Positions 27,200 through 64,000 of a stretch of DNA of 64,000 nucleotides are shown here, one piece after another. The stretch spans positions 35,388 through 99,387 of the forward strand of contig JAZRSY010000008.1 in NCBI GenBank assembly GCA_045651765.1. The letters run 5' to 3'. Within the stretch, counting starts at the first letter, position 1; each line of letters starts with the position of its first letter. Origin of the DNA: Acutalibacteraceae bacterium. Lineage in GTDB: Bacteria; Bacillota; Clostridia; Oscillospirales; Acutalibacteraceae. Below the pieces are notes generated by a model that was not told the DNA's origin, ran no database searches, and saw only the letters and a list, made by a program, of their open reading frames with translations. The position numbers and the translations under genes are program-made.

Positions 27200-27209
27200 A
27201 ACATACCTC

Positions 27210-31800: not shown

Positions 31801-31801
31801 T

Positions 31802-33874: not shown

Positions 33875-33875
33875 T

Positions 33876-34259
33876 TCATAAAATTCCCGATATTACATTA
33901 AATAAATCTTTAATAAGCGGCACGCAAAGTAAAAAAATTGCCACCTTGCCTGCAAGTTCAGCCTTAGACGCTATGGCCGAAAAACCAAAATCACGGCAGG
34001 CATCGGCCACAAACTGCGTTATGTAACCGAGCGCCACCGTTTTTAAGGCTATGAAAAAATATTTTTGGTTAACCCCCGCCGTTTTCAATTCCGAAAACAG
34101 TTGCATTAAGGGGTTAATTACAGCAACCGACACCGCAATTATTAAACCGCACCCAACCACCACCGTTATTGCAGTTGCATATTCTTTTTTATATTCCAAA
34201 AAAATTACACCCACAAAGGCAGCCACAATGCACAAGGCAAATATTTTAAAAATATCCAT
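33876..34259 (-). CDS. spoIIIAD: Stage III sporulation protein AD
   Basis: ORF 33876..34271. The internal ATG at 34259 (MDIFKIFALCIVAAF...) matches the SpoIIIAD N-terminus and abuts the AC stop. It has 4 TM helices. Confidence 0.85.
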   Translation of the reverse strand: MDIFKIFALCIVAAFVGVIFLEYKKEYATAITVVVGCGLIIAVSVAVINPLMQLFSELKTAGVNQKYFFIALKTVALGYITQFVADACRDFGFSAIASKAELAGKVAIFLLCVPLIKDLFNVISGIL

Positions 34260-34260
34260 T

Positions 34261-34455
34261 TTAAAGTCCAAACAAGCCCTTTACCGTTGTGAAAAGTTCG
34301 GCTATTACCTTAACCACCATTAAAAGCACAACCACCAAACCTGCAAGGGTTGTTAGCATTGCCTGTTCCTCACGCCCCGAGCGCACCAAAACCTGATTAA
34401 GCACCGTAACAATAATGCCTATTGCGGCAACCTTGAAAATAAAATCTACATCCAT
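34261..34455 (-). CDS. spoIIIAC: Stage III sporulation protein AC
   Basis: 64 aa and 2 TM helices. MDVDFIFKVAAIGIIVTVLNQVLVRSGREEQAMLTTLAGLVVVL is very SpoIIIAC-like. Confidence 0.88.
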   Translation of the reverse strand: MDVDFIFKVAAIGIIVTVLNQVLVRSGREEQAMLTTLAGLVVVLLMVVKVIAELFTTVKGLFGL

Positions 34456-34465
34456 TTTTTGCCTC

Positions 34466-34924
34466 CTACACCAATAAGACCGCTATGCTAAGGCCCGAAA
34501 ACAACCCCAACATTTTATATAATTTAGATTTTTTAATATACTCATTGTCGGCCGAGGCCCACCTTTGTTTTAAAATATCGGCATAGGTTTCACACCTTTT
34601 AATTTGCGATTCTATATTACCCATGCCAAGCTCGGCAAAAAATTCCTCAATAATTTTTTGGTCATCTTTATTAAGGTGGCCGTTTTTAATTTGCACACAA
34701 AACGGCTTTTTAAGGGTTAAATAATTCTCTTTGCCCAAAATGGTGTTTAAAATATCGTAAATTTCGGCCGCTGTGCCCGAAATTTTTTGGCCAATGCACA
34801 AGACCGAAAAATAAAACCACTCTAATGCATCTGCCCTGTTTTTAAGTTGTAAAGAATTTTTTCGGCCCAATAAAAATCCGCTTAAAACAATAAAAGCAAG
34901 ACCTATAATTTTAATTATCCACAT
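34466..34924 (-). CDS. spoIIIAB: Stage III sporulation protein AB
   Basis: 152 aa with N- and C-terminal TM helices around a soluble GspF-like domain. Its position in the operon is consistent. Confidence 0.82.
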   Translation of the reverse strand: MWIIKIIGLAFIVLSGFLLGRKNSLQLKNRADALEWFYFSVLCIGQKISGTAAEIYDILNTILGKENYLTLKKPFCVQIKNGHLNKDDQKIIEEFFAELGMGNIESQIKRCETYADILKQRWASADNEYIKKSKLYKMLGLFSGLSIAVLLV

Positions 34925-35832
34925 ATTTCCCCCTCTAAAATTAAAGGCGGTTCGCCCACCTTTTTTAAAAAAACAACCTTATTTATAACGCCGCTTTCAA
35001 TTAATTTTTTTGTAACACCCCTCTTTTTAAGCTCGGCCACACTGCCAATGTGCGCCGTGGTTACAATAAAAACTCCGGTGTTAATGCTTTGCATAACACC
35101 TAAAAGTTCCTTTTCGGTTCCAATTTCGTCAAAGGCTATAACCTCGGGCGACATAGAGCGTAATGCTACCTCAATTCCCTCGGGTTTGGGGCGGCCTGTT
35201 ATAACATCGGTGTTAAATCCAACTTCATTTTGCGGCACGCCACAAGTTGCGGCGGCTATTTCGCCACGGGTATCTATCACCGAAACCCTATAACTTTTAC
35301 CGGTTTCTCCATTCGAAAGGCTCCTTACAAAATCTCGCAAAAATGTAGTCTTGCCACTGCCGGGCGGGCCACAAATTAAAACCGAGCCACCGCTATAATT
35401 TTGGGTTAAATTTTTTGCCACCCCAATAATTTGGTGTGAAATTCTAATATTTACCGATGTTATGTCGCAAAACTTACCCTGTCTGAAAACACCGCAAATT
35501 CCCGCTCTGTTGCCAAACGGCATGGTTATATATCCATTCAAAATTTCGTCGAGGTGCGAATAAACCGAATTATTGCAAATAAGTCTGGCCACCTCAAGTA
35601 AATCGGCCGCCGCCACTAAAACCGAATCTTGTTGCGGAGTGAGATAAAGTTCTGACGTCTTGGTTAAAAAATATGTTTTACCGCCAAACACAACAGCCAA
35701 ACCGCCACCCGCCCTGAGCCTTATTTCCTCTGTTTTTGCCTGTATGTTTAGCGGTAACAGCTTAAGAACACTTGCAAATTTTTGCGGCAAAAACTCACAG
35801 GCCGAAACATAACCTTTTGTTTTCGTTTCCAT
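34915..35832 (-). CDS. spoIIIAA: Stage III sporulation protein AA (secretion-type AAA ATPase)
   Basis: 305 aa. Walker A GPPGSGKTT and Walker B-like VIAFDEIG. It is the first gene of the eight-gene operon. Confidence 0.9.
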   Translation of the reverse strand: METKTKGYVSACEFLPQKFASVLKLLPLNIQAKTEEIRLRAGGGLAVVFGGKTYFLTKTSELYLTPQQDSVLVAAADLLEVARLICNNSVYSHLDEILNGYITMPFGNRAGICGVFRQGKFCDITSVNIRISHQIIGVAKNLTQNYSGGSVLICGPPGSGKTTFLRDFVRSLSNGETGKSYRVSVIDTRGEIAAATCGVPQNEVGFNTDVITGRPKPEGIEVALRSMSPEVIAFDEIGTEKELLGVMQSINTGVFIVTTAHIGSVAELKKRGVTKKLIESGVINKVVFLKKVGEPPLILEGEICG

Positions 35833-41701: not shown

Positions 41702-41777
41702 TGGTGGAGCATAGGGGACTTGAACCCCTGACCCCCACACTGCCAGTGTGGTGCGCTACCAACTGCGCTAATGCCCC
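41702..41777 (-). tRNA. tRNA-Ala (anticodon GGC)
   Basis: The minus strand reads GGGGCAT-TA-GCGC-AGTTGGTA-GCGC-A-CCACA-CTGGCAG-TGTGG-GGGTC-AGGGG-TTCAAGT-CCCCT-ATGCTCC-ACCA. It folds as a cloverleaf with the G3:U70 alanine identity pair, and CCA is encoded. Confidence 0.92.
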
Positions 41778-41902: not shown

Positions 41903-41976
41903 TGGGGAATTGTGTAACGGTAGCACGACAGACTCTGACTCTGTTTGTTGGGGTTCGAATCCCTATTCCCCAGCCA
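41903..41976 (+). tRNA. tRNA-Gln (anticodon CUG)
   Basis: TGGGGAA-TT-GTGT-AACGGTA-GCAC-G-ACAGA-CTCTGAC-TCTGT-TTGT-TGGGG-TTCGAAT-CCCTA-TTCCCCA-GCCA. The U1:A72 pair is typical of bacterial tRNA-Gln, and CCA is encoded. Confidence 0.92.
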
Positions 41977-51633: not shown

Positions 51634-51653
51634 TTTTTTTAAAATTAACGGCA

Positions 51654-51688
51654 AAAATCCCTGCAAAAGCAGGGATTTTTATTTTTTC
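51654..51688 (+). terminator. Intrinsic terminator after the small Cys-rich ORF
   Basis: AAAATCCCTGC-aaaa-GCAGGGATTTTTATTTTTT. Confidence 0.88.
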
Positions 51689-52273: not shown

Positions 52274-52306
52274 AAAAACACCCGAGGTTAAACCTCGGGT
52301 GTTTTT
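52274..52306. terminator. Bidirectional terminator (nitroreductase on plus, 8-gene ABC locus on minus)
   Basis: AAAAACACCCGAGG-ttaaa-CCTCGGGTGTTTTT. Confidence 0.9.
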
Positions 52307-52313
52307 ATTTAAT

Positions 52314-53645
52314 TTATTTTGTTGCTAAAACTTGGTTAAGTTCTTCCATTTTAGCAGTGGCTTGGTTTTCCATTGATTGTATAAATGTTGTAATTTGTGC
52401 AGCGGTACCATTGTTGAATAGGTTCCAGTGGAAAGGATGAGTTTCGAATGTGAAAATATCACGAGAGATAGATTGATATTGATTATCGGTGGCCAATAAG
52501 GTCATCATAACATCATAAGCTTGCTCATTGTAATAATATGAGTGTGGCTCGTAATTAGCAAGGTTAGCAAAATAACCAACAAAGTAAGGAACAGCAGCCG
52601 GGTTCTTAGCACCTGTGGCAATGGAGAAACCTATTGTTTCGTTTATAGGTGTGAAAGCCTCTTTGCCTTCAAACTTGGGCATTGGAACAGCCTTAAAGTT
52701 ACCATATTTTTGAATTTTCATGGTTGCGTTTTCAGTTTCTAAAACATGAGTGTTACCAATTGCAAACAAGGTTGTGGGCTTCATGGAATCGAAAGTACCT
52801 GCGCCTTGTGTGAAGATTCTGTTAGCGCGGCCTTCTAATAAGAATTTCCAAGCATCTAACAGATCGGCATCGTAAAGGTTAAGGGAATATTTTGAACCGT
52901 CATATGTAACAAAGTCTTTACCAATAGTTTCGCCGGCCATATTGTAAAAAACGGTCTGCATGCCGTAATAATCGGTGCCTTGTTTAACCCATTCTTCGCT
53001 CATTTCTTCTAATTTTTCCCAGGTCCATTCGCCTTTTTTATAAAGCTCCCATGGGTCTTCAAAGCCCATTTCTTCCATAACTCTAGTGTTATAAACTATG
53101 ATAGTGAACCTTTTAAATGGTGTGTAAGAAAGACCAAATGCATAAGGAGTGCCGTTAACCGAATATAAATCGGCAGTGGATTTGCTCCAAGCAGGGCCTG
53201 AGAAATCGTAACCTGTTACAGAGATAGGTTGCGAGAACTTCATAGCATTAAATGTAGGTGTGTAGTTTGTGTAAACATCGGGGGAATCGCCGGTAGCTAC
53301 CATGGCTGCTAACTTTTCGTTATAAGTATCGCCATATTGGGCATCTATAATCTCAACATTAATGCCCGATTCTTGTTTAAACCTGTCAATAACTTGACCC
53401 TCTTGGCCGAAATCATACGGGTCGTACCAGTTCAAGAACCTAACAGTTGTGCCCTTAAGTTCTGCCGGCACTGAAGCGATTAATGCAGCTGAATCGAGTG
53501 CATTTTCGGCAGAAACACCAGCTTGTGTGCCTACATTATTGCCTCCATTGCCACCATTGCCACTATTGCCGCCGCAAGCAGCAACCGAAAGTGCCAACAA
53601 AAGAACAAGCATAAGGGCAACTATTTTTTTAATAGTTTTAGACAT
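52314..53645 (-). CDS. ABC transporter extracellular solute-binding lipoprotein (sugar/CUT1-like)
   Basis: 443 aa. Lipobox LSVAACGG followed by a Gly/Asn-rich linker. It has typical SBP_bac_1 size and composition and is the last gene of the locus. Confidence 0.82.
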   Translation of the reverse strand: MSKTIKKIVALMLVLLLALSVAACGGNSGNGGNGGNNVGTQAGVSAENALDSAALIASVPAELKGTTVRFLNWYDPYDFGQEGQVIDRFKQESGINVEIIDAQYGDTYNEKLAAMVATGDSPDVYTNYTPTFNAMKFSQPISVTGYDFSGPAWSKSTADLYSVNGTPYAFGLSYTPFKRFTIIVYNTRVMEEMGFEDPWELYKKGEWTWEKLEEMSEEWVKQGTDYYGMQTVFYNMAGETIGKDFVTYDGSKYSLNLYDADLLDAWKFLLEGRANRIFTQGAGTFDSMKPTTLFAIGNTHVLETENATMKIQKYGNFKAVPMPKFEGKEAFTPINETIGFSIATGAKNPAAVPYFVGYFANLANYEPHSYYYNEQAYDVMMTLLATDNQYQSISRDIFTFETHPFHWNLFNNGTAAQITTFIQSMENQATAKMEELNQVLATK

Positions 53646-53694
53646 ACTTTTTTCTCCTTTAATAAAAAATTTGTGTGTATTTGCTAAATTTATT

Positions 53695-54657
53695 TTAACC
53701 TACAATTCCTACTCTGTCAATACTTTTTATGAAATTTTTTTGCATTATACAATACATAACAAGCATAGGTAAAATGAACAACAAGCAAGCCGCCATTACA
53801 GCACCCGAAGAACTATTTGCATATTGGTCTAGGCCGAATGCACTCACTTTATTATATATTTTAGAAAGATTTACTGCTAAAATATCACTGTTGGTAAAGT
53901 ACATTTCGCAAAGGTAAGAATCGTTCCAGTGCCAAATAACACTGAATATTGTAACGGTTAAGAATGCAACGCCAGAAGACGGTACAACGATTGATAAGAA
54001 TGTTTTTATAGGACCTGCGCCATCAATAGAGGCGGCCTCTTCAAGTTCTTTGGGCATACCCTTATAGAACTGAACAAATATGAATATGAAAAGACCGGCT
54101 TTGAGTCCCACACCTAAAATACTTGGCAAATAGAATGCCCACGGGGTATTAAGCAAATTAGGTCGAATATCGGTTCCGATTAGGTTGCCTATTAATTTTA
54201 AAATTCCAAGGCAATCAAAATAACGCATGTTAAGCATTAACGGAATCATAATCATATTAGTTGGGATTAATATGGTTAAAATGAGGAAAAACATTAATAG
54301 TTTTTTCTCTTTAAAATCAAACCTTGCAAGACCGTATGCAAACACAGAGCAAGAAACAACCTCGATTAATCCTGAAACTATTTCGGTTTTAAGGGTATTA
54401 AACAAACCTATTGGGTATTGTAAAGCCTTCCACGCGATAGACATATTCTCTAACGTGTAGTGCTTAGAAATCCATACAACCGTTTGGTCTTCAAAATCGT
54501 AAATATGTCGGAACGAAACCGAAAGCATATAAATTAACGGGTATATGATAACGTAGCCTACAAGTAACAAAAATGCCCAACGTAATATTGTAACAACAAC
54601 AGATGTTGCTTTCTGCCTTGCCTTAAGAGGAGAAATTTCTTTATTAAATAATGTCAT
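53695..54657 (-). CDS. Carbohydrate ABC transporter permease (MalG-like)
   Basis: ORF 53695..54693. The ATG at 54657 (MTLFNKE...) follows an AAGGGGGA RBS. It has 6 TM helices and an EAA loop, EEAASIDGAGPIKTFLSIVVP. Confidence 0.88.
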   Translation of the reverse strand: MTLFNKEISPLKARQKATSVVVTILRWAFLLLVGYVIIYPLIYMLSVSFRHIYDFEDQTVVWISKHYTLENMSIAWKALQYPIGLFNTLKTEIVSGLIEVVSCSVFAYGLARFDFKEKKLLMFFLILTILIPTNMIMIPLMLNMRYFDCLGILKLIGNLIGTDIRPNLLNTPWAFYLPSILGVGLKAGLFIFIFVQFYKGMPKELEEAASIDGAGPIKTFLSIVVPSSGVAFLTVTIFSVIWHWNDSYLCEMYFTNSDILAVNLSKIYNKVSAFGLDQYANSSSGAVMAACLLFILPMLVMYCIMQKNFIKSIDRVGIVG

Positions 54658-54671
54658 TTTGTTTTCCCCCT

Positions 54672-55586
54672 TTAAGACCAGCGTTTTAGGCATAACTTGT
54701 TATAAACTGCAAGTATTACTGCCATGAAAACACCTATTATTAAAAAGTAAAGCCACAGCATTGCCGAAGATTTGTCGTAAACCTGTTGGCCGCTCATTAG
54801 ATCGAACGCCATAGACATTATATACTTTCTGGTTGTTATTAGGTCTATCATGGTGTAAACCATAACAAGTAAAATGTTTTGACCTAACATTGGGAAGGTA
54901 ATGTACCAAAATTCTTCCCATTTAGAACAACCTTCAACCTTAGCAACCTCATAAAGAGATTCAGGTATAGACTGCAAACCCGAAATAAACAGAATAATTT
55001 GAATTCCGCAGTTCCATAAAAGGTTAAATATACCGCTTATGTAACCCGAAATCAACTCGGTTAATTCGGCGGGCAGGCCTAAATTTTCTAGTACTTTATC
55101 AAAATTTATCATATTGCCGTAGGTGCCGGCAGACTCGCCCGAGGTAGCACCAATTATCATACCGCTTTTTGATAAATAATCAATAATAACACCGGTTGCT
55201 ATTATTACAGGCAAAAAGTAAATTGCCCTCATTACAATTCTGCCTTTGAATTTTTGGTTAAGAATAATGGCAAGAATTAAACTTAATGCCAAAATAATGG
55301 GAAGCTGAACCAAAAACACTCCCACGGCATCTTTAAGTCGGTTTAAGTAATCCGGGTCTTGATTGATTATGTCATTGAACCACTTAAAGCCTACAAATTT
55401 TGCCTCTACACCGCCCGAAATAATTCTTACATCGGAAAAGGCATAGCGTATAGAGTTAATAATTGGCATTACAAAGAACAATATTAAACCTATCTCCCAC
55501 GGGAGAACGAACAGTCTGCCATATCTGCTTTTTAAGGCCTCAACGCCTTTTGTTTTCTTTTTGATTTTTGTACCCAAACTGTTCAC
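54672..55586 (-). CDS. Sugar ABC transporter permease (MalF-like)
   Basis: 304 aa (GTG start, or the TTG at 55577) with 6 TM helices and an EAA-like loop, YEVAKVEGCSKWEEFWYITFPML. Confidence 0.85.
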   Translation of the reverse strand: MNSLGTKIKKKTKGVEALKSRYGRLFVLPWEIGLILFFVMPIINSIRYAFSDVRIISGGVEAKFVGFKWFNDIINQDPDYLNRLKDAVGVFLVQLPIILALSLILAIILNQKFKGRIVMRAIYFLPVIIATGVIIDYLSKSGMIIGATSGESAGTYGNMINFDKVLENLGLPAELTELISGYISGIFNLLWNCGIQIILFISGLQSIPESLYEVAKVEGCSKWEEFWYITFPMLGQNILLVMVYTMIDLITTRKYIMSMAFDLMSGQQVYDKSSAMLWLYFLIIGVFMAVILAVYNKLCLKRWS

Positions 55587-55590
55587 CCCC

Positions 55591-57810
55591 TTATTTAATT
55601 ACCAAATAGTCGTTGGCTTTAACTATGCCATCGGCTACGGTGTAATCGGAATTCGAATAATTTACATAAGTTTTAACGCCATTTGCGAAGGTTGTGCAAC
55701 GAACATCTTTTGTTATGAGTTCGTGGTTTACAATTGTTTGACCACTTATTGCACTGTAATAATCTTTAAATTCGTTGCCGGCATTAATAATAACATCTTT
55801 ATTACCTTTGTAAAGGCCACCGTATAAATCTTTATGTGGTGAAAGTGTTATGGTCTCGTTATAGTTGTTGTAAAGTGTAAACAACATTGAAGAACCTGTT
55901 TCAAGAGCATAAAGCTTTTTAGTTTCAAAACTCTCGCCCGCGTTCATAGCCTCGGATGTGATTTCGGTTTTTCCTTTAAATATCATTTGGTAGAAAGGAA
56001 TATCAGCCGTGAACATATCTTGTTTAGATGATGTGTGCGGAGCTTCGAAAATACAATCGGCAATTTGTGCAGCATAAACATTAGCGCCTGTGGCAGCAAA
56101 CGAATAACCATTTTGCTTGTAGTTGTTGGCAATTTCGCTTACCTGTGCGCCCATGCCGTTTTTAGCATAATATTCATCCGACGTATAATCGGAATAAGCG
56201 TTTGATGTTATGCTGGCAAAGCTAACGCCGCTAATATTATATTTACCGATTTTCTTGAGCAATTTGTTAGCAATTGCATCTAACTTTGTTCTGGTAATTA
56301 ACCTGTGGCGACTGTAATTGTCAACATCAGGTATATGAGCACCTCTGCTTATTTGATACACGTAAGCCGAGGCTTTAGTGGCTGTTTTGGCGGTGTCGAA
56401 TGTGTTATAACCGCCGCCTGCCTTAGCAAATTCGCTAATATTGAAATCTACAAACGAATCTATTCCGTTTTGTTTACAATATTCGGTAAGACTATTTAAC
56501 TCTTTTTTGCTGCCGAACTTGTTTGCTAACTTAAAGTTGCCGGCAATTTTGCTTATATCTAAGCCCGATTCGCCAAATCCATAAAGTTGAATATTGGGTT
56601 TAACGCCGGTTACCGAAAGTTCATTTAAAATGTTAGAAATATCGGAATATGTGGTAAGTGCCAATAATGATTTATACGGGAAGCCTATAAAGTTTTTCTG
56701 TTGACCTAAACCACCAATAAACTTAAGCGAATAAACCGAATCTTCTACATCGCTTGCAGCGTCATTGTTACCATAAAGGTATTCTTGGTACAACCTAGCC
56801 ATACCGTTATAGTTGGCATTCGCGTCGCTCAGTGGATAATAATCCACCGTGAACACGGCTTTTTCTAAGCGCTCGTCAGAATATAATTCCGAATCGTTTC
56901 CACTGCCCGACTGAATATAGGTGTAGTCGCTGTTGCGCAAATCAAAACTGGCGCAAATTGAACTGTAACCCGTTACATTGTCGGCTACTGTTGCGTTTAT
57001 TGATGCTGAATCGGCACCCGAAGAAATTATGGCAAGCACCGCATTGTTTCCTGTTTTAATGCCGTAAACCGGTAAATAAACATTCTTTTCGTTGGTTTGT
57101 TTGTCCTTAATTTTTCTGGCAGCATCGTTTCCGTAAACCTCTGACGAGGTTGTCATTTTTTCGGTTACGGGCTTGCTAATGTCAATTAAAGCACCGCTGC
57201 CCGACGGATAGAACATATAGGAATCAGCCTGGCCATGTGGAGCCGAGCATAAATAAGGTGCTACTTGAATGCTGTAAACCAAGTTCTCATTTTCAACAAT
57301 TTTAGATGTATCTATAGAAATGCTCATGCCTTTTTCTTTAAGAGAATAGGTTACAGGAATTAAAATTTCAGCATCTTTAAACAAATAGGTTACTGTAACA
57401 GCACCATCTGTAATTTCGGCCGAATATGTGCCCTTATTAACACTGTGAGTATAGGCTCTGGCGTCGGCAATGGCGTTTTCTTCGGCCATTTTATATGAAA
57501 CTAAAATTGCCGATTCTAAATAATTCCTTTGCCTTGCTTGTTTTTCTTCGGTTGGGGTGTTCATATAACCTTCCGGTGTGGTTGACCACTGAACACCCGT
57601 TGCCTTATCGGTAAGAACTACACATTTTTCGTCGTTATTCCAAGAAAGTATAAAATTGCTGTTTTCGTTAATAACGCCTTCTTGAATTTTTGCTTTAGGC
57701 AAAAGTGAGGTAACATCAACTGTAACCGTTTTGCCACAGCCTGCCATAGTGGTAACCAGCATAATTGCACAGATAGCGAAACTAACAAATTTTAATATAA
57801 ATTTTTTCAT
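55591..57810 (-). CDS. Large extracellular lipoprotein of unknown function (DUF5696-like by recollection; possibly glycosidase-like)
   Basis: 739 aa with lipobox TTMAGCGK. I can read no recognised catalytic motif. It sits between the two ABC permease pairs. Confidence 0.6.
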   Translation of the reverse strand: MKKFILKFVSFAICAIMLVTTMAGCGKTVTVDVTSLLPKAKIQEGVINENSNFILSWNNDEKCVVLTDKATGVQWSTTPEGYMNTPTEEKQARQRNYLESAILVSYKMAEENAIADARAYTHSVNKGTYSAEITDGAVTVTYLFKDAEILIPVTYSLKEKGMSISIDTSKIVENENLVYSIQVAPYLCSAPHGQADSYMFYPSGSGALIDISKPVTEKMTTSSEVYGNDAARKIKDKQTNEKNVYLPVYGIKTGNNAVLAIISSGADSASINATVADNVTGYSSICASFDLRNSDYTYIQSGSGNDSELYSDERLEKAVFTVDYYPLSDANANYNGMARLYQEYLYGNNDAASDVEDSVYSLKFIGGLGQQKNFIGFPYKSLLALTTYSDISNILNELSVTGVKPNIQLYGFGESGLDISKIAGNFKLANKFGSKKELNSLTEYCKQNGIDSFVDFNISEFAKAGGGYNTFDTAKTATKASAYVYQISRGAHIPDVDNYSRHRLITRTKLDAIANKLLKKIGKYNISGVSFASITSNAYSDYTSDEYYAKNGMGAQVSEIANNYKQNGYSFAATGANVYAAQIADCIFEAPHTSSKQDMFTADIPFYQMIFKGKTEITSEAMNAGESFETKKLYALETGSSMLFTLYNNYNETITLSPHKDLYGGLYKGNKDVIINAGNEFKDYYSAISGQTIVNHELITKDVRCTTFANGVKTYVNYSNSDYTVADGIVKANDYLVIK

Positions 57811-57829
57811 TTAATTTCCCTCCTGTGCG

Positions 57830-59962
57830 TTATCTGAAGAACAGTTCCATTGCAACTGTTTCTATGAAAATTTTAACCTGCTGGCATAAAATAAACATCA
57901 TGAATATTAAGAATATAATTAATATCATTGCTAACAGGGTTATAATTGTTGTGAACACAAATTTTCCAAAGGTAAATTCGTGCAGGTTGATAAGCCCCAT
58001 AACAAGAATAACACCTGTTAATATAATGCAAACATAATTAAGTATTGCTAATATATTAGCTTCGTTAAGGGTTAATACATTAGATAAAATATCGTAACCT
58101 ATTGCCTGAATTATCATTGGGATTAAGCTATAACTTGTTACAATATATATATCCTTTAACTTACCTTTACCCTCAAACAATGTGGTAACAGCCCAGTTGG
58201 CAACAGTAAACAAAATTACAAGGCCAAATGTTTGGGCTAAGGCATACCATGCGTTAACATCTTTAATGCTGGAATCGTTAAAAATAAATCCTGTTGAAAG
58301 ACCTATTATTTTAAACACATACCAAACGGCTAAAAATGCAGTTGCTATTAAAACAGAGCCGCCTTTGTTATTTTTAATTTCATAAAAAGTGTCGGCCGGG
58401 TGCAATAATGTTGAAATTGCTGTTTTAAATTTATAGTTTTTAATTAAAACAATGTTTTTCTTCTTTTTCCAATGTAAGAATAATATTAAAGCAACAACCA
58501 AAACAACAATTATTGCAACAATTAACACGAAGTTTTTGGTTAGAAAATCTTTTCTTACATATTCATACGCACGGCTATAGGTTGTGCGGTCCACACCTTT
58601 TTTAGCGTAATCTAAAGCTTCGTGGTAATTTTCTTGTAAAAGTTTTGCTTTAGCAATACCGCGATATGCCAAAATGTTATTAACATCTAGTTCTAAAACT
58701 TTGTTCCAATATGCTTCGGCATCGTTATAATCGCCCGAAATAGTTAAGTTTTGGGCTGTTTGAACTAAATCGCCATATGCGTTGCGACCAAACACGGTAA
58801 TATTGTTTTTAATGGCATCCACTACATATAACTTTCCGTTCATGGTGCTAATGGCTTTGGAACTTTTAAATGTGCCTTCTTGCGAGCCGAAATATACACC
58901 GCCGCCTATTGTAGTAATAAGGTTACATTCGTTATCGTAAACATAAATTCTGCCATAGGCAACGTCGCACACATAAATGAAGTTATTTTCATCTATGCAA
59001 ATGCTGGCCATATCGTGTCCTAATTCACGTGCGCCGTATTTAATCATTTCCTCGGTGGCAAACATAACACTTGCGGAATCAGAAACATCGGTTCCTGATT
59101 TATCTTTTAATATGTTTGTTCCTATTGGGTTAAGTTTTTTAACCGAACCTGTTGCCGAGGCTGTAGCTTCTGTGGAACCTGTACAGGTGTAAATATAACC
59201 GTCGGGACCAAGCTCCATATCTACAAACGAGAAAGGTAATATCTTTTCGCTTTTAGAAAGTTTTATATCGTTTTGGAAAAGCATATCCCAAAGGTTATTC
59301 ATGGCGTCTAATATGGTGGTACTTACAGAGTTAGCGCCAAAGAAGCCTTTGAACTCGTAATCGGGGGTGTACATTGCAGCACCGTGGTAGCTACCTTCAC
59401 ACAAAACGTATAAATAGTCCATTTCGTCTTTAACTATTTTAATTGGTGAATAGTGAAGCGATTCCGGCCACATTACAGTATCGGGTTTCTCTAACACCGT
59501 TGTAACATTGCCCAAAGTGTCGCCAATAAGCAAACGGTTATGTGCAGTGTCGGCTATGTAAAGAACATTATCTTCATCTATCAAAATGCCGCGAGCATCT
59601 TTAAAATCGCTAACTTCGCCATTAATTGTTACACTGCTAATAACACTAATAAGATTAAAGTTTTCATCGGTTATAACAATTTTGCCCGAGGCAGAATCTA
59701 ATATATAAATTTTGCCGTCGGTAGCATAAATATCATATAACGAACCAAAATTTTCAAGACCTAAATCGGCCGCTATAATGGTTTTTTCGTGCTCAAACAT
59801 CGGCCTTGTGTAAACCATTTCTTTTTTGCCCTGGCTACCGGCCCAATTTGATACAGCATCGTTAACGCTATCGCCAAATTCGGCAGCAGAAGCTGTTATG
59901 TTAAATGTAAAAAGGCAAAGGGCGCACAACAAAACCGCTAAAATTCTTTTAAAGTTTTTCAT
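57830..59962 (-). CDS. Fusion protein: signal peptide, NHL-repeat beta-propeller, TPR, and C-terminal Yip1-type polytopic membrane domain
   Basis: 710 aa. NHL-like blades IYILDSASGKIVITD, LYIADTAHNRLLIGD, IYVCDVAYGRIYVYD and LYVVDAIKNNITVFG. TPR-like segment DYNDAEAYWNKVLELDVNNILAYRGIAKAKLLQENYHEALDYAKKG. About 6 TM helices follow from residue ~470. Confidence 0.65.
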   Translation of the reverse strand: MKNFKRILAVLLCALCLFTFNITASAAEFGDSVNDAVSNWAGSQGKKEMVYTRPMFEHEKTIIAADLGLENFGSLYDIYATDGKIYILDSASGKIVITDENFNLISVISSVTINGEVSDFKDARGILIDEDNVLYIADTAHNRLLIGDTLGNVTTVLEKPDTVMWPESLHYSPIKIVKDEMDYLYVLCEGSYHGAAMYTPDYEFKGFFGANSVSTTILDAMNNLWDMLFQNDIKLSKSEKILPFSFVDMELGPDGYIYTCTGSTEATASATGSVKKLNPIGTNILKDKSGTDVSDSASVMFATEEMIKYGARELGHDMASICIDENNFIYVCDVAYGRIYVYDNECNLITTIGGGVYFGSQEGTFKSSKAISTMNGKLYVVDAIKNNITVFGRNAYGDLVQTAQNLTISGDYNDAEAYWNKVLELDVNNILAYRGIAKAKLLQENYHEALDYAKKGVDRTTYSRAYEYVRKDFLTKNFVLIVAIIVVLVVALILFLHWKKKKNIVLIKNYKFKTAISTLLHPADTFYEIKNNKGGSVLIATAFLAVWYVFKIIGLSTGFIFNDSSIKDVNAWYALAQTFGLVILFTVANWAVTTLFEGKGKLKDIYIVTSYSLIPMIIQAIGYDILSNVLTLNEANILAILNYVCIILTGVILVMGLINLHEFTFGKFVFTTIITLLAMILIIFLIFMMFILCQQVKIFIETVAMELFFR

Positions 59963-59976
59963 TGTTTACCCCCCTT

Positions 59977-60882
59977 TTAATCCTTCATACCGGAATTACT
60001 CATGGTTTCCATTACATTACTTTGTGAAATCAAATACACAATTATAGGCGGAATCATCATAATTACGGTGGTGGCCATGGCGTTACCGGCACGGGCAATA
60101 CCGCCTGCTGTAATCTGGCTCATTGCCGATGGCAGTGTTTTTAAAGATTCGGTAAATATTGTAGATACCGTACCTGTGGCCCACATTCCGCTGAACGAGA
60201 ACAACAACAATGTTAACCAACAAGGTTTAACCATTGGCATTAATATTTTCCAGAAAATGAGCGGATAGCCTGCACCGTCAATACGGGCGGCTTCAAGCAA
60301 TGCATCGGGCACCGAGGCGTCCATATATTGTTTCATAAGGAATACACCCATTGCTGATGGTATTGCGGGTAGAATATACACCCAATATGTATCAATAATG
60401 CCCATTTTTGAGAAAATAATATATTGTGGAACAAACAATGTTGTACCGTTATATAATAGCGCAAACTGAACAATCAAGAAAACAACGGTGCGCCATTTGT
60501 ATTTGCTTTTTGAAAAGAAGAAGGCTGCTGCCGCTGCACATAAAATATGCAAAACGGTACCAACTATGGTAATGAAAATACTGTTGAACACATACCTTGA
60601 AAGCGGAACCTGCAATTTAGAAAGCAGTGAAGGCAACAGTGTATAGTTGGAAATTGTTGGCCTTTTTACAAAAAACCTTGGTGGGAAAATTAAAATTTCA
60701 TCCAACGGTTTAAGTGAAGTTGATACCGAATAAACTAAAGGTAAAACGCTAATAATACCAAAACCTAACAGCATAATTACAAATATTGTTGTAACAGCCT
60801 TGGAACGAGTATAGCGTTTGTACTGTAATTCGCTTGTATCAAACAATTTAAATTTACGAAGTTTATCCCTAAATTTTTTCAT
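59977..60882 (-). CDS. Carbohydrate ABC transporter permease (MalG-like)
   Basis: 301 aa with 6 TM helices and an EAA loop, LEAARIDGAGYPLIFWKILMPMVKP. Confidence 0.88.
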   Translation of the reverse strand: MKKFRDKLRKFKLFDTSELQYKRYTRSKAVTTIFVIMLLGFGIISVLPLVYSVSTSLKPLDEILIFPPRFFVKRPTISNYTLLPSLLSKLQVPLSRYVFNSIFITIVGTVLHILCAAAAAFFFSKSKYKWRTVVFLIVQFALLYNGTTLFVPQYIIFSKMGIIDTYWVYILPAIPSAMGVFLMKQYMDASVPDALLEAARIDGAGYPLIFWKILMPMVKPCWLTLLLFSFSGMWATGTVSTIFTESLKTLPSAMSQITAGGIARAGNAMATTVIMMIPPIIVYLISQSNVMETMSNSGMKD

Positions 60883-60896
60883 AATTACAGCACCCC

Positions 60897-61853
60897 CTAT
60901 TTACCCATTCTGTTAAGTAGTTTTGCAACTACATTACGGAATATTGCCATCATGGCAAACAAGAATATAGAAATTGCTGCTGCATAGCCCATTTCCATAC
61001 GTGTGTTGGCAACGTCACCCAAATATGTAACTATTGTGTCGGCGCAGTTGTTAACCGTTGGGTAACCGCAAAGCGTTGTTATGGTGGCACCTATTGAGAA
61101 AGCGCCTGCAATTTGCATAACCGCACCAAACAAAAGAATTTCTTTCATACATGGTAGGGTTATATACCAAAGTTCTTGCCAACGGTTTCTAATACCGTCT
61201 ATAGCGCCGGCTTCAAAAAGTGACACATCTAAGCCCTGCAAACCTGCAATATCGGCCAAGAAAGAAACGCCTATACTCGACCAAATTGTAATTGCAATTA
61301 TAATTGGCACAATGTATGTTGGGTTGGAAAGCCATAAAATAGGCTCGTTTATAAGACCCACGCTCAAGAGTGCACTGTTAACATAACCGTAAGAGTCGCT
61401 GCTGAAGGCAATTTGCCAAATAAAGAAGGCGTTACCAACAAGTGCCGGAGCATAGAATAAAAACGACATAAAGGAACGAACCTTTGGATTAAACTCGTTT
61501 ATAAACCAAGCCAATACATAGGAAAGTAAAAATCCTGCAGGGGCGGTTGCTACGGCCAAAATAAGTGTGTTGGTTGTTATTTTTATAAATAAATCATCGG
61601 TAACGAACATACGAAGGAAGTTGTCAAGCCCTATAAACTTAGGGGCCGATAACATATCGTAAGAGAAGAAACTTAAAACAAGTGAAACCACTATTGGCAG
61701 TGCTGTAAATAAGCCAAATAAAATAAAGAAAGGAAGGGCCAGCGAAAATAACGATATCTCACTACCGCCAAACGACGACTTGCTTTTTTTCTTTTTAATA
61801 ACTTTATTGTTAGTCAAGGTTATATTCGCCTCTCTTTCTTTCAATTTCGGCAT
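60897..61853 (-). CDS. Sugar ABC transporter permease (MalF-like)
   Basis: ORF 60897..61859 starts at a TTG. Alternative starts are the ATG at 61853 and an in-frame TTG at 61817 that overlaps the upstream stop. It has 6 TM helices and an EAA loop, FEAGAIDGIRNRWQELWYITLPCM. The start is uncertain. Confidence 0.8.
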   Translation of the reverse strand: MPKLKEREANITLTNNKVIKKKKSKSSFGGSEISLFSLALPFFILFGLFTALPIVVSLVLSFFSYDMLSAPKFIGLDNFLRMFVTDDLFIKITTNTLILAVATAPAGFLLSYVLAWFINEFNPKVRSFMSFLFYAPALVGNAFFIWQIAFSSDSYGYVNSALLSVGLINEPILWLSNPTYIVPIIIAITIWSSIGVSFLADIAGLQGLDVSLFEAGAIDGIRNRWQELWYITLPCMKEILLFGAVMQIAGAFSIGATITTLCGYPTVNNCADTIVTYLGDVANTRMEMGYAAAISIFLFAMMAIFRNVVAKLLNRMGK

Positions 61854-64000
61854 CGGCAATTTTTGCCCATTTGAAAATCATATCTTTCGGGTTTTCCGAA
61901 AGGTTGATAACATTTTGGAAAGCCTGCATTACCGAACGCTCTACATAATAGCCACCGGGAACCTCTTTAAGTCCTTTAACATAACTCCAGGCGTCTAACA
62001 TAATTTCAAGGTCGTTAGATTCCCAAGAAAGCATCTTAAAGGCCTCAACATTGGCTGTTGTTCTACGGCCAACTTCACCTAAAATGGCCTCTAACATAAC
62101 CGAATATCTGTATTGTGTATTGGCGTTTGTCCACCATTTTAAGAAGGTCCAGGCCTCATCTTTATGTTTGCTTATATTTGGTATAACACAAGCAGTACCG
62201 GTGTCGGACTGAGCATAGTTGATAACTCCGTCTTCACCCATTGTACCCGGCATTTTAGCAATGCCCCATTTGCCTACAATTTCGGGGGCTGCTTGGCTGA
62301 ACAAGGTGTAGTTTGTATAACCTGAAACGCCCATTGGCATTGTGCCCGCACGGAAACGGTTGTATAAATCGAAGCTTACCGGGAAGCTTAGGTTGGTGTA
62401 ATAATCGGTCCATTCAACAAAGGTTTCAACTGCGGCACCATTTAAGAAGTTGGTGCGGTCGTTTTCGGTGTAAACCGGAATGTTCTTTTGCATTAAACGT
62501 GTTGAATAAACATTAAGTGTGGTACTTAACATTCCGCCTGAAACAACACCTGTCGGCAAACCAACCTGCAGGTTTTGCCTTTGAAGCAAGGCTGTAACAT
62601 TCCTAAACTCTTCCCAAGTTTTAGGTGGTTCAATGCCTATTTCTTCAAAAATATCGGTTCTGTAGAAAAGAATCGAGAAATCTTGTGTATCGGGTATACC
62701 ATAAATTGCATTACCTAATTTATATGGGTCGTCGGCACCGGGTTGGAAGCGCTTAACAACCTCGTTGTAATCGGGGAAGTTAGATAAATCGTATAACGCG
62801 CCACGCATTCCGTAGTTTACCGGCTCGGTACGGCCTTGACCTATAAGCAGGTCAGGTCCGCTACCGGCTAAAATAGCCTGAATGAGCGATGCGCCAACTA
62901 TTTGAACATTAACATTAATGTTGGGGTTTTCTGCCTCGAAAGAGTCTTTAATAAGTGAGGTTAAAATTTGTGTTTGGTCACGGCCCCAGGTTACCCATAA
63001 AGTAAGGGTGGTTTTGTCCTTAGTGCTTTCGGTGCTATAACTGTATTCGTCCATAAACGAAACCAAGAAGCGTTCGGCCGAGAATTTAGTCTTTTCCCAC
63101 CAGTTTGCCATTTTAAACTCATAATCCTTTTCGGGTGAGGCTAAAATAATTTGGTCTAAATCGAGTGGTAGTTTTGCAACGTCGGAAACAAGAGCAGTTA
63201 ACGAGCAATAGTTATCGTAATAACTTTGCACGTATTTTTGTGCGCTATATTGGTTTTCAAGCATATCGCGCATTACACGCACCATATTTTGAATGGTCGA
63301 AACATATGTACCGCTTTCTTCCTGGGTTATTTCTATAATCCTTTTGGAAACAGCCTCAAGGCTTTCTATGTTAGCGGCAAGGGTTTCGTTAAATTGCGGT
63401 ATGTTTTTAAAGAATTCATAACTACGGCCGGCGTCTATTTTTTCGCCCGTAATCATTTTAATTTTAAGGTAAAGGTTACCAACATCGTAGGCAACATCGT
63501 TAATTTGGCGACTAACCTCACCAAATTCGCCCAAAGTAACGCTAAGGCTTATGGTGCGTTTGCCTTTTTTTAAATAAATGAGAGCCGGCTCATCCGAACC
63601 TGCATTAAGTTCAGAGAATTGCCAGTTACCATCGTAATAGAACGGAACACTTGCGGCCTCGGTAAACGGATTTTTACCGTCAATTTTAAGGTTACGGTAA
63701 GAGTTACCGCTTATAACTACATTTTGGCGGTACCTAAAAGCCATTCTGTAAAGGCCATCTTCGGGTATATACACTTCCCAAGAAATGGTGTCGTTAGGTT
63801 TTTGCCAACCTGTGCCACCTATGTAGTTAATAATATTTTTAAATGCCTCGGAAGGTGTAAGGCTTGGGTCGCTGTTATCTATAAGAGGGTTAATAGAAGC
63901 GGTGCTTTTGTAGGTTGCTTTTTCGCCTTCTATAAGAATATCGGCTCCGGTGTAGTTTTTATAACCGTTTTGTTCGTATTCTTTAGCCACTTGTTCGTAA
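61810..64000 (-). CDS. Oversized ABC solute-binding protein with an N-terminal lectin/CBM-like beta-sandwich and helical linker (5' end beyond the right edge)
   Basis: More than 729 aa. The frame is open to base 64000 and the listed start is only an internal GTG. The N-terminal part reads WQKPNDTISWEVYIPEDGLYRMAFRYRQN...YRNLKIDGKNPF (CBM-like). Next comes a ~150-aa helical region. A canonical SBP domain then starts near TLTLWVTWGRDQTQILTSLIKDSFEAENPNINVNVQ. Confidence 0.75.
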   Translation of the reverse strand, partial: YEQVAKEYEQNGYKNYTGADILIEGEKATYKSTASINPLIDNSDPSLTPSEAFKNIINYIGGTGWQKPNDTISWEVYIPEDGLYRMAFRYRQNVVISGNSYRNLKIDGKNPFTEAASVPFYYDGNWQFSELNAGSDEPALIYLKKGKRTISLSVTLGEFGEVSRQINDVAYDVGNLYLKIKMITGEKIDAGRSYEFFKNIPQFNETLAANIESLEAVSKRIIEITQEESGTYVSTIQNMVRVMRDMLENQYSAQKYVQSYYDNYCSLTALVSDVAKLPLDLDQIILASPEKDYEFKMANWWEKTKFSAERFLVSFMDEYSYSTESTKDKTTLTLWVTWGRDQTQILTSLIKDSFEAENPNINVNVQIVGASLIQAILAGSGPDLLIGQGRTEPVNYGMRGALYDLSNFPDYNEVVKRFQPGADDPYKLGNAIYGIPDTQDFSILFYRTDIFEEIGIEPPKTWEEFRNVTALLQRQNLQVGLPTGVVSGGMLSTTLNVYSTRLMQKNIPVYTENDRTNFLNGAAVETFVEWTDYYTNLSFPVSFDLYNRFRAGTMPMGVSGYTNYTLFSQAAPEIVGKWGIAKMPGTMGEDGVINYAQSDTGTACVIPNISKHKDEAWTFLKWWTNANTQYRYSVMLEAILGEVGRRTTANVEAFKMLSWESNDLEIMLDAWSYVKGLKEVPGGYYVERSVMQAFQNVINLSENPKDMIFKWAKIADAEIERKRGEYNLD

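Follow-up and report, generated by a model that had tools for sequence, protein, structure and literature searches.

What does a gut bacterium do with an operon in which two full pairs of sugar-ABC permeases are separated by two large surface proteins of no described function? The initial annotation of this locus proposed a dedicated surface machine. We consider it probable, at roughly 60%, that the locus is an operon for a multi-part apparatus of glycan capture, processing and import in a monoderm gut Clostridium (Oscillospirales). The substrate, catalysis by the DUF5696 lipoprotein and the physical assembly of the apparatus are what we infer, and a surface machine is what the parts taken together suggest.

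Eight co-directional genes form a single operon

An ORF check of the window (the whole 64-kb stretch of DNA analysed) returned eight ORFs on the minus strand between 52314 and 64000, separated by 4–49 nt or overlapping, in agreement with the initial annotation. Transcription runs from a large binding protein (SBP; 61810 to 64000, 5'-truncated, its frame open to base 64000) through the permeases of module 1, F1 (MalF/UgpA-like; 60897–61859) and G1 (MalG/UgpE-like; 59977–60882), a 710-aa NHL-TPR-Yip1 membrane protein (57830–59962), a 739-aa DUF5696 lipoprotein (55591–57810) and the permeases of module 2, F2 (54672–55586) and G2 (53695–54693), to a small SBP of 443 aa (52314–53645). The profile searches that had been proposed as a check found SBP_bac_1 on both SBPs, BPD_transp_1 on all four permeases, and DUF5696, Yip1, NHL and TPR on the remaining two proteins.

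We find these genes to be one real operon. The sole strong terminator at the locus, as had been claimed, is a bidirectional intrinsic one at 52274–52306, with a 15-pair stem (7 G-C pairs), a 3-nt loop and T runs on both strands; it is common to the end of the operon and the end of a convergent nitroreductase gene. Inside the locus lie a weak hairpin at 61884–61902 and a promoter-like site at 53692–53720 scoring 11/12. Promoter-like sites number 41, just as many as chance predicts, and terminator-like sites 21 against 14 expected, barely over the chance level; no convincing internal terminator that would split the genes into unrelated units was found.

All four permeases retain the EAA loop, which couples to the ABC ATPase: EAGAIDG...LP, read from the sequence, in F1 (BPD_transp_1, E = 2.8e-7), EAARIDGAG...MP in G1, an EAA-type loop, YEVAKVEGCSKWEEFWYITFP, in F2 and EEAASIDGAG...VP in G2. 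Longest-ORF starts are given throughout, and those of the 320-aa F1, where the TTG start overlaps the stop of the large SBP, and of the 332-aa G2, which overlaps F2 by 22 nt, are uncertain; F2 begins 4 nt past the DUF5696 stop. The window contains neither an ATPase nor a regulator, as initially annotated. Firmicute CUT1 systems normally come without an ATPase gene of their own, and the missing ATPase is therefore not a distinguishing feature. The subset of window ORFs scanned has no match to a curated Pfam GH family; the further claim that no recognisable glycoside hydrolase is present has nevertheless to be modified, since the lipoprotein has a GH129-like/GH101-like fold (see below).

A seven-gene core is conserved while its surroundings change

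We compared about 90 loci from gut Clostridia, mostly the best 80 of 424 matches. Every untruncated locus in this sample has the same seven genes in the same order (big SBP, F1, G1, NHL-TPR-Yip1, DUF5696, F2, G2), and the order is kept in loci whose DUF5696 proteins are 52%, 36%, 32%, 27%, 25%, 23% and 21% identical to that of the window. Conservation across about 90 independent loci places the gene order beyond chance. Each permease best matches the window permease in the same position (80 genome loci), and core intergenic gaps have medians of –4 to 15 nt (83–86 loci). The core is thus a deeply conserved, translationally packed unit. The association of Yip1 and DUF5696 genes with ABC genes in Clostridia, mentioned in the initial annotation, is borne out in Acutalibacteraceae and Oscillospiraceae MAGs: each untruncated locus of the sample has both genes beside both modules. 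All DUF5696 genes of this sample, which is mostly the best 80 of 424 matches, belong to the cassette, and more distant members of the family could occupy other contexts. Nine genomes carry two or three copies of the cassette, 33–53% identical to one another. Our literature search found no paper describing it.

Conservation is highest in module 1, where G1 is the best-conserved protein of the set (median identity 59–80%) and F1, with a positional orthologue in every locus, has 56–77%; it is lowest in the small SBP, the fastest-evolving member (25–38%). The latter carries a lipobox (VAA/C in the window, and present in 59 of 59 small SBPs), matches SBP_bac_1 (Pfam, E = 8e-9) and has no PDB relative at E ≤ 0.01. 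It is present in 61 of the 81 complete loci, and in 21 of 54 it lies more than 100 nt from G2. The eight-gene unit initially described consequently holds for its seven-gene core; the eighth gene, that of the small SBP, is optional and only loosely attached.

Could these be two ordinary, independent CUT1 importers and two unrelated surface proteins that share a transcript and form no joint apparatus? Each module has standard parts, F1/F2 and G1/G2 are only 22–25% identical (25% for F2 and F1, 22% for G2 and G1), hence no recent duplication, and absence of the ATPase is normal. The invariant seven-gene order down to 21% identity despite changing flanks, the near-zero gaps and the confinement of sampled DUF5696 to the cassette make this very unlikely.

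The flanks change completely between loci. GH16 enzymes with dockerin adjoin 46 loci, GH36 adjoins 16 and AraC genes 18; CE2/GDSL, GH2 and beta-helix proteins are also found. Some loci are flanked by GH53, by GH9, by GH94 with PF10091 and GH35/42, or by GH27 with CBM35-GH26 and GH113. Beside the operon, both here and in the close relative L008, there is no other CAZyme and no regulator.

Compared with the CUT1 importers of gpPULs (the Roseburia/Ruminococcus type: SBP, MalF-like, MalG-like and a shared MsmK), the cassette has the same SBP_bac_1 binding proteins, two BPD_transp_1 permeases with EAA loops per module, an ATPase encoded elsewhere and, near many relatives' cassettes, GHs, esterases and AraC regulators. 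It differs in locking two anciently diverged modules in one operon, in its ~965-aa SBP, which is no lipoprotein and combines two CBM35-like modules with a helical domain, and in the obligatory presence of NHL-TPR-Yip1 and the DUF5696 lipoprotein.

The large binding protein carries CBM35-like modules and no anchor

The window covers the C-terminal 729 aa of a protein of ~965 aa, judging from L008; neither the signal peptide nor the first of its CBM35-like sandwiches falls within it. The visible part comprises the second CBM35-like sandwich (~63430–63987), a helical region (~62995–63417) and an SBP_bac_1 domain (~62119–62973; Pfam E = 9e-28) that is similar to Lin1841, MBP1, CbpB and other oligosaccharide SBPs. 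For the CBM35-like modules, a match to the CBM35 of 5x7g has E = 5e-7, and sub-threshold Pfam matches are to CBM_35 in 14 and to Golvesin_C in 20 of 26 large SBPs. The full-length protein of L008 begins with an SPase-I-type signal peptide, MKRYIAIILAVAFTVSVFQVTCFA. A lipobox-like motif occurs in only 5 of 79 large SBPs, and a C-terminal transmembrane helix or LPXTG in none of the 79. This is a large SBP with two CBM35-like modules and no recognisable anchor of any kind.

An anchorless SBP might suit a cassette that works on the bacterium's own surface glycan, by export or remodelling, instead of taking up nutrients, and CBM35 modules such as CsxA-CBM35 can bind a bacterium's own wall glycans. 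BPD_transp_1 permeases with SBPs are importers (type I ABC), and the flanks, with their GHs, esterases and AraC regulators, are catabolic, which renders this reading extremely improbable.

The DUF5696 lipoprotein has a glycosidase fold

The 739-aa lipoprotein belongs to PF18952 (DUF5696) over its full length (E = 7.8e-125) and has a lipobox, MAG/C25, as do 76 of 87 DUF5696 proteins. Its AF2 model (pLDDT 90.9, pTM 0.90) shows a (beta/alpha)8 barrel between two beta-sandwiches, one N-terminal and one C-terminal. Foldseek matches this model to DagB/ZgGH129, a 3,6-anhydro-D-galactosidase (5opq, 8rzk; E = 5e-32, TM 0.61–0.70), then to NagBb, a GH129 alpha-N-acetylgalactosaminidase (5wzn; E = 7e-25), and then to GH101, GH36 and GH31; TM values to ZgGH129 and NagBb span 0.6–0.74, and the other families are more distant. 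A profile search against the PDB gave E = 7e-9 in three collinear stretches. The model thus has the GH129-like/GH101-like three-domain glycosidase architecture, with conserved carboxylates: among the conserved residues E173, D229, D541, N577, N623 and E637, the four acidic ones are kept in >90% of 93 sequences.

Mutating Asp202 or Asp486 inactivates ZgGH129 (PMC5698469). By collinear offsets, D229 in the N-domain and D541 in the barrel would match these two residues, and the best-conserved motifs fall where ZgGH129 has active-site residues. Equivalents of ZgGH129 Glu517/Glu531 and NagBb Glu478 are not evident, and comparison by sequence gave no alignment across the catalytic region. Unlike ZgGH129 and NagBb, to which it is ~12% identical, DUF5696 is a separate Pfam family and a lipoprotein encoded within an ABC operon, and its flanks suggest beta-linked plant or fungal glycans rather than carrageenan or mucin. 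The literature searched contains no mention of DUF5696/PF18952, and we found no characterised function for it or for the Yip1 fusion, as the initial annotation had supposed.

A rather unlikely alternative is that DUF5696 is no enzyme and instead binds glycan at the surface or hands it over, taking the place of the SBP for permease pair 2, with NHL-TPR-Yip1 scaffolding a two-transporter supercomplex. The order DUF5696-F2-G2 mirrors SBP-F-G, and DUF5696 always directly precedes F2 (median gap –1 nt, 86 loci). No small SBP lies within 10 kb in 20 of the 81 complete loci, so that in about a quarter of them module 2 is without an obvious binding protein. For two of the four catalytic residues of ZgGH129 no conserved equivalent is evident, and the core adjoins enzymes for chemically unrelated polysaccharides, which is awkward for one fixed activity. 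GH129, GH101, GH36 and GH31 are alpha-glycosidases, whereas the backbones targeted by most flanking enzymes are beta-linked, so that it is difficult to envisage a single trimming activity conserved throughout. Against this, the conserved carboxylates and the placement of the top motifs at ZgGH129 active-site positions argue for an enzyme, and the fast divergence of DUF5696 (35–51% identity) fits one that bears specificity. Nor are we aware of any protein with a GH fold docking on a type I ABC importer.

A propeller fused to Yip1 sits between the two modules

The 710-aa protein starts with a cleavable signal peptide, followed by an extracytoplasmic six-bladed NHL propeller (~58784–59857), two to three TPR-like helical pairs (~58598–58780), one transmembrane helix and, after a short stretch in the cytoplasm, a Yip1 domain of five helices (~57908–58414; Pfam E = 4.4e-14). 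The NHL/TPR and Yip1 parts are two adjacent genes in three loci (L005, L089 and L090). The propeller matches NHL domains of Thin, TRIM2 and PknD at E down to 2e-21, while Foldseek on the AF2 model (pLDDT 81.8) returned generic NHL propellers only.

The PknD sensor domain and BtuG are likewise extracytoplasmic beta-propellers of this fold class. BtuG is a surface lipoprotein with a structure solved with bound cobalamin, a ligand that it passes to a transporter. The likeness is at fold level only (TM ~0.5–0.77 on the target), with no ligand-site evidence in common and different membrane partners. The closest precedent for the other half is Bacillus YknW, a Yip1-family membrane protein encoded with an ABC transporter, YknXYZ, whose assembly it is reported to modulate (PMC4887032). 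YknW has no domain besides Yip1 and acts together with a MacB-type exporter and a membrane fusion protein, whereas here the Yip1 domain shares one chain with an extracytoplasmic NHL propeller and TPR, and lies between two type I importers.

Resemblance to PknD and other ligand-binding NHL domains suggests that the protein, possibly with module 1, is a sensor whose propeller detects polymer and modulates transporter activity or gene expression, instead of a scaffold. That conservation is far higher in module 1 and the big SBP than in module 2 and the small SBP would fit a common signal over diverse nutrients. We nevertheless regard a sensor as quite unlikely: the protein has just ~35 residues plus loops in the cytoplasm and no output domain there, no regulator is adjacent in the window or in L008, and AraC genes accompany only 18 loci.

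A proposed generic transport platform with variable enzymes

In the preferred reading, that of glycan capture, processing and import, endo-enzymes would first cut the polysaccharide extracellularly. Their genes lie beside the core in most relatives and would lie elsewhere in this genome; with no flanking CAZyme here or in L008, the polymer-degrading step must rest on genes elsewhere. The CBM-like modules of the big SBP would hold the polymer or a long oligosaccharide, and this protein would load oligosaccharide into permease pair 1, while membrane-tethered DUF5696 would trim or cleave the captured glycan at the surface. Permease pair 2 would take in the product, with the fast-evolving small SBP where present. 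NHL-TPR-Yip1 may act as a membrane scaffold or gate, keeping the anchorless SBP and the lipoprotein at both transporters, and an MsmK-type ATPase encoded elsewhere would power both importers.

As a functional analogy only, the SusC/SusD core of Bacteroidota PULs is also a multi-copy, diverged transport core with varying enzymes around it. The cassette consists of monoderm inner-membrane ABC importers, as opposed to an outer-membrane TonB-dependent transporter, and has no sequence or fold relationship to SusC/SusD. Since different copies are flanked by different enzymes, the core may be a generic transport platform with specificity tuned copy by copy, its own genes being conserved while the substrate-specific enzymes around it change.

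The locus encodes two diverged CUT1-type importer modules in one tightly packed operon

The initial annotation had described eight co-directional genes on the minus strand, and our ORF listing places all of them where they had been reported. In the direction of transcription these are the gene for a large substrate-binding protein (big SBP; 61810 to the window end), cut by the window end as its reading frame is still open at base 64000; a MalF-like permease (F1; 60897-61859) and a MalG-like permease (G1; 59977-60882); a 710-aa NHL-TPR-Yip1 membrane protein (the Yip1 fusion; 57830-59962); a 739-aa DUF5696 lipoprotein (55591-57810); a second permease pair, F2 (54672-55586) and G2 (53695-54693); and a 443-aa lipoprotein SBP (small SBP; 52314-53645). 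We refer to the first seven genes as the core, or cassette, to the big SBP with F1 and G1 as module 1, and to F2 and G2, with the small SBP, as module 2.

Neighbouring ORFs in the locus overlap or are 4-49 nt apart. The one terminator seen in the initial annotation is indeed a strong hairpin of 15 bp at the far end (52274-52306), which also serves the convergent nitroreductase gene. We rejected a division of the operon by internal promoters or terminators: promoter-like consensus matches occur inside it at chance level and terminator-like ones only slightly above. Two internal sites, neither of which we count as an operon boundary, can be described individually. The promoter-like TTGACA-17-TAAAAT (11/12 matches; 53692-53720, minus strand) falls within the final codons of G2 and precedes the start of the small SBP by 47 nt. 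The weak terminator-like hairpin at 61884-61902 (minus strand; seven pairs, four of them G-C) sits approximately 75-90 nt before the stop of the big SBP, just ahead of F1; it could attenuate read-through and so set the SBP-to-permease ratio, or could be a chance occurrence. Outside the locus, ctsR and the nitroreductase gene are separated by another strong terminator-like hairpin, bidirectional and with 13 pairs (51652-51681).

The family assignments of the initial annotation were upheld by Pfam and NCBIfam. Both SBPs match SBP_bac_1 (E = 9e-28 for the big and 8e-9, above the gathering score, for the small SBP), and the big SBP also matches SBP_bac_8 (E = 5e-20). All four permeases score above the Pfam gathering score for BPD_transp_1 and match UgpA/UgpE/MalF/MalG/GlcT/GlcU models, and an EAA coupling loop can be read directly from each translation. 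Both modules, therefore, have the clustered binding protein and two EAA-bearing permeases of a CUT1 system. No MalK/MsmK-type ATPase is encoded among the window ORFs scanned; the initial annotation had noted this absence, which we do not take as a sign of oddity since CUT1 systems in Firmicutes normally have no ATPase gene alongside. F1 and F2 are 25% identical, and G1 and G2 22%: the two modules diverged long ago, and we rejected their origin in a recent tandem duplication of a single transporter. No PDB structure is related to the small SBP at E ≤ 0.01, so that it offers no ligand hint.

The seven-gene core is conserved among gut Oscillospirales

The initial annotation had proposed that the accessory proteins recur with the ABC genes, and the neighbourhood proved to be conserved. 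The order big SBP (~950-980 aa), F, G, NHL/TPR/Yip1, DUF5696, F, G is found on contigs with DUF5696 proteins of 52, 36, 32, 27, 25, 23 and 21% identity to that of the window. Scanning one genome per GTDB species with an alignment of 20 closer DUF5696 sequences yielded 424 relatives, and we analysed the loci of the best 80, labelling ORFs by the window proteins. Almost all of these 80 come from gut or rumen Acutalibacteraceae, Oscillospiraceae or 'Ruminococcus' metagenome-assembled genomes (MAGs). In every untruncated locus among them the seven genes stand in the fixed order, and each permease finds its best match in the window permease of the same position. Median intergenic gaps within the core range from -4 to 15 nt. 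A further homologue search with the DUF5696 alignment returned no additional proteins. Faced with this fixed order, we consider it very improbable that independent parts are merely co-transcribed here.

Conservation is uneven across the locus. Median identities to the window proteins in the near and the far clade, respectively, are 80 and 59% for G1, 77 and 56% for F1, 63 and 42% for the big SBP, 63 and 47% for F2, 60 and 49% for G2, 57 and 37% for the Yip1 fusion, 51 and 35% for DUF5696, and 38 and 25% for the small SBP. The last of these always carries a lipobox (59/59 relatives), and an ordinary SBP lies within 10 kb of the core in only 61 of 81 complete loci. Its median distance from the core is 74 nt and exceeds 100 nt in 21 of 54 loci; so loosely attached a gene may have extra expression of its own.

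Nine genomes represented among the best 80 loci carry two or three cassettes each (UMGS1148, with L027, L074 and L086, is an example). DUF5696 copies from the same genome are only 33-53% identical to each other and have different flanks, which marks them as old paralogues rather than assembly duplicates.

The big SBP combines CBM35-like modules with a domain resembling oligosaccharide binders and lacks a recognisable anchor

We took the missing 5' end of the big SBP from L008, a locus of a close relative (94% DUF5696 identity). By this comparison the full protein has ~965 aa and is made up of an SPase-I-type signal peptide, two tandem beta-sandwiches, a helical region of ~140 aa and the SBP domain; every domain is retained in all clades. 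The sandwiches give weak but repeated profile matches to CBM35/CBM6 structures, namely 5x7g (CITase CBM35; E = 5e-7), the CBM35 structures 2w47/2vzp (E = 0.002-0.006) and 2cdp, while Pfam CBM_35 is matched in 14 of 26 members at scores below gathering (best E = 5.5e-6). The SBP domain is nearest to oligosaccharide binders: Lin1841, RafE-like proteins, MBP1 and CbpB. A lipobox-like motif is present in only 5 of 79 relatives, and none of the 79 has a C-terminal TM helix or LPXTG motif. An SBP without an anchor is unusual in a monoderm and calls for some other means of retention.

DUF5696 is predicted to have a GH129-like glycosidase fold

PF18952 covers the DUF5696 protein at full length (E = 8e-125; 418 bits versus a cut-off of 25.6; profile positions 5-612 of 612), and 76 of 87 relatives carry a lipobox. 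The family is large, with 6,901 clusters at 50% identity at E ≤ 1e-3 and 4,049 at E ≤ 1e-30. The AlphaFold model of the window protein is confident (pLDDT 90.9, pTM 0.90): a (beta/alpha)8 barrel lies between an N-terminal and a C-terminal beta-sandwich. In a Foldseek search of the PDB the top matches are the GH129-like 3,6-anhydro-D-galactosidase ZgGH129/DagB (5opq, 8rzk; E = 5e-32, TM 0.61-0.70), followed by the GH129 alpha-GalNAc-ase NagBb (5wzn; E = 7e-25) and then by GH101, GH36 and GH31. Independently, the sequence profile matches the GH129-like proteins in three collinear stretches (DagB, E = 7e-9; NagBb, E = 0.03). The predicted fold is thus that of a glycosidase, with the three GH129-like domains and a central barrel. 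By sequence, DUF5696 falls outside GH129: the structural alignment shows ~12% identity, profile scores are weak and Pfam keeps a separate family.

Across 93 distinct members the best-conserved polar residues are E173, Y226, D229, D541 (87/93), N577, N623, E637 and N717. In ZgGH129, mutation of Asp202 in the N-domain, Asp486, Glu517 or Glu531 inactivates the enzyme (PMC5698469). The catalytic Asp486 corresponds to Asp435 of NagBb, in which the acid/base is Glu478. Judged by collinear alignment offsets, D229 and D541 may occupy the positions of Asp202 and Asp486. Equivalents of Glu517/Glu531 are not evident in DUF5696, no conserved Glu stands at the expected acid/base position, and no GH129 structure could be aligned to a sub-profile built on residues 495-660, the putative catalytic region. 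Fold and conserved polar residues together suggest that the protein probably has a conserved sugar-binding or catalytic pocket.

The Yip1 fusion is a six-bladed NHL propeller carried on a membrane domain

Pfam recognises Yip1 (PF04893; E = 4e-14, 53.1 bits versus a cut-off of 28.6; residues 517-685), NHL and TPR in this protein. Profile searches and the AlphaFold model (pLDDT 81.8) give the layout, from N to C terminus, as a cleavable signal peptide, an NHL propeller of six blades (strands spanning residues 36-393), TPR-like helices (395-455), a separate TM helix, a short cytoplasmic segment and a Yip1 membrane domain of five long helices (537-709). The best NHL profile match is the Thin NHL domain (E = 2e-21), with TRIM2/3/71 and PknD also matched. 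Foldseek with the propeller retrieved generic NHL propellers only (TM on target 0.72-0.77): TRIM/Thin, Drp35, BtuG and the Pizza proteins, which are designs based on PknD.

In three distant loci the NHL/TPR ectodomain, with its TM helix, and Yip1 are encoded by two overlapping adjacent genes (L005 7867-10001, L089 3086-5178 and L090 7902-9984), with the break in the short cytoplasmic linker. Such fusion and fission is evidence that the two parts act together. The propeller protein could be a sensor, a role that we regard as improbable; we favour a scaffold or gate. The only precedent for such a role of a Yip1 protein is YknW, reported to modulate assembly of the YknXYZ ABC exporter (PMC4887032). 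In YknWXYZ, however, the Yip1 protein is partnered by a MacB-type permease/ATPase and a membrane fusion protein, whereas here the partners are type I importer permeases and SBPs. The locus is therefore not a YknWXYZ-type system. We give next to no credence to the idea that the cassette serves export.

Related cassettes are flanked by differing sets of glycan-active enzymes

Downstream of the operon lie the nitroreductase gene and ctsR-mcsA-mcsB-clpC; upstream, in L008, come rplM-rpsI, then a terminator, an AT-rich spacer and a promoter of the form TTGACA-17-TATTAT. We rejected a mobile-element or phage origin: in the window and L008 the operon is bordered by ribosomal-protein and clpC operons, and the flanking genes scanned include none for mobility. 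By its working definition, a Gram-positive polysaccharide utilisation locus (PUL) brings together enzyme, transporter and regulator. Here the transporter is present as two ABC modules and the sole enzyme candidate is DUF5696, on the strength of its modelled fold; no other CAZyme was found among the window ORFs scanned, and no recognised GH flanks the core in L008. Neither window nor L008 has a regulator beside the operon, or a regulatory RNA recognised by Rfam.

In most relatives recognised GHs flank the core. GH16, often with dockerin, accounts for 79 ORFs in 46 related loci, on both sides of the core, the proteins being nearest to laminarinases and the GH16 structure 6t2n. GH36 occurs in 16 related loci, one relative has GH9-CBM3-dockerin, and other flanking genes encode GH2, GH53, CE2/GDSL esterases and beta-helix proteins. 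AraC-type regulator genes lie near 18 of ~85 related loci. A Pfam scan of the 92 remaining flank proteins showed a heterogeneous set, mostly of housekeeping families only. The clearest substrate hint for any cassette copy comes from L090 (1-17580), in which the core appears to lie within a mannan locus: GH27, SBP, the seven-gene core, CBM35-GH26 and GH113. In L007 (1-19025) the genes around the core encode GH94, two PF10091 ('Glycoamylase') proteins and a GH35/GH42-like enzyme; taking PF10091 to be the family of GH144 beta-1,2-glucanases, these flanks suggest beta-1,2-glucan, or something related, as a possible substrate. A fixed transport core, several diverged copies per genome and differing enzyme sets follow the logic of PULs.

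These neighbours pose the main difficulty for an enzymatic role of DUF5696: its fold relatives are alpha-glycosidases, whereas most of the enzymes encoded nearby act on beta-linked backbones. This leaves room for the alternative that DUF5696 binds glycans or hands them over, from the place that an SBP would occupy before F2-G2; we consider that unlikely and still prefer a role in trimming or cleavage.

Several further features were recorded. In the clade nearest the window, a conserved protein of ~300 aa is encoded in divergent orientation, immediately upstream of the cassette on the opposite strand (L001, L011, L013-L018 and L024; for example L014 196-1107); it has a TM helix at the N terminus and a tail rich in Ser/Thr, matches no Pfam family, usually adjoins a GDSL/CE2 esterase, and is absent from the window and L008. 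Elsewhere in the window, 27210-29273 (minus strand) encodes a 687-aa protein whose only Pfam match at 1e-8 is a type I dockerin at the C terminus, its gene overlapping that of a 529-aa protein with a cadherin-like domain (25679-27268, minus strand). The organism thus probably has a cohesin-dockerin system, which fits the dockerin-bearing GH16 beside related cassettes. The spoIIIA genes AA, AB, AE and AH at 31273-35832 (minus strand) indicate a likely endospore former. An EamA gene and an NMT1-like SBP/TRAP transporter region are separated by divergent genes for tRNA-Ala(GGC) (41702-41777, minus strand) and tRNA-Gln(CTG) (41903-41976, plus strand).

A proposed apparatus for glycan capture, processing and import

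We propose, with a confidence of about 0.6, that the locus encodes a single co-functioning apparatus for glycan capture, processing and import. The anchorless big SBP would hold a polymer or long oligosaccharide by its CBM35-like modules and load permease pair 1; the DUF5696 lipoprotein would trim or cleave the glycan at the membrane surface; and permease pair 2, with the variable small SBP where present, would import the product. The NHL-TPR-Yip1 protein would scaffold or gate the assembly and may also retain the big SBP, and a shared ATPase encoded elsewhere would power both importers. The sequence analysis establishes gene content, order and packing, types of signal, folds and conservation; where the proteins reside, what they catalyse, how they share the work and whether they assemble is inferred. 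More tentatively, and with considerable doubt, the core could be a general glycan-import platform of gut Oscillospirales, a monoderm counterpart of SusC/SusD, forming one membrane supercomplex in which the Yip1 fusion tethers the CBM-bearing big SBP and the GH-fold lipoprotein between the two importers, with DUF5696 as a new GH family or pseudo-enzyme feeding permease pair 2 directly. If so, the assembly would physically couple the capture of polymer to cleavage at the surface and to the import of two classes of product.

Taken singly, all the parts are of known classes (CUT1 importer, CBM35-like module, GH129-like fold, NHL propeller, TPR and Yip1). Keyword searches of the open-access literature found no description of the fixed seven-gene combination and no mention of DUF5696/PF18952. 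The cassette is real and non-random, and is undescribed as far as such searches reach. We class the locus with those for carbohydrate uptake in Gram-positives, to which it adds accessory components that are new and obligatory.

Oscillospirales (Acutalibacteraceae, Oscillospiraceae and Ruminococcus-like bacteria) are major fibre degraders of human and ruminant guts, and much less is known of how they take up glycans than of the Sus-like systems in Bacteroidota; nearly all relatives that we found are uncultured MAGs. The 7-8-gene unit recurs in hundreds of species (424 matches among GTDB species genomes), often in several diverged copies per genome, and adjoins mannan, beta-glucan, galactan and other enzyme sets. 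It raises three questions: that of a probable new GH family in DUF5696, as its modelled fold suggests, that of the role of a bacterial Yip1 protein with importers, and that of how an anchorless SBP is retained in a monoderm. As a marker, the cassette would also help to predict polysaccharide loci in Oscillospirales.
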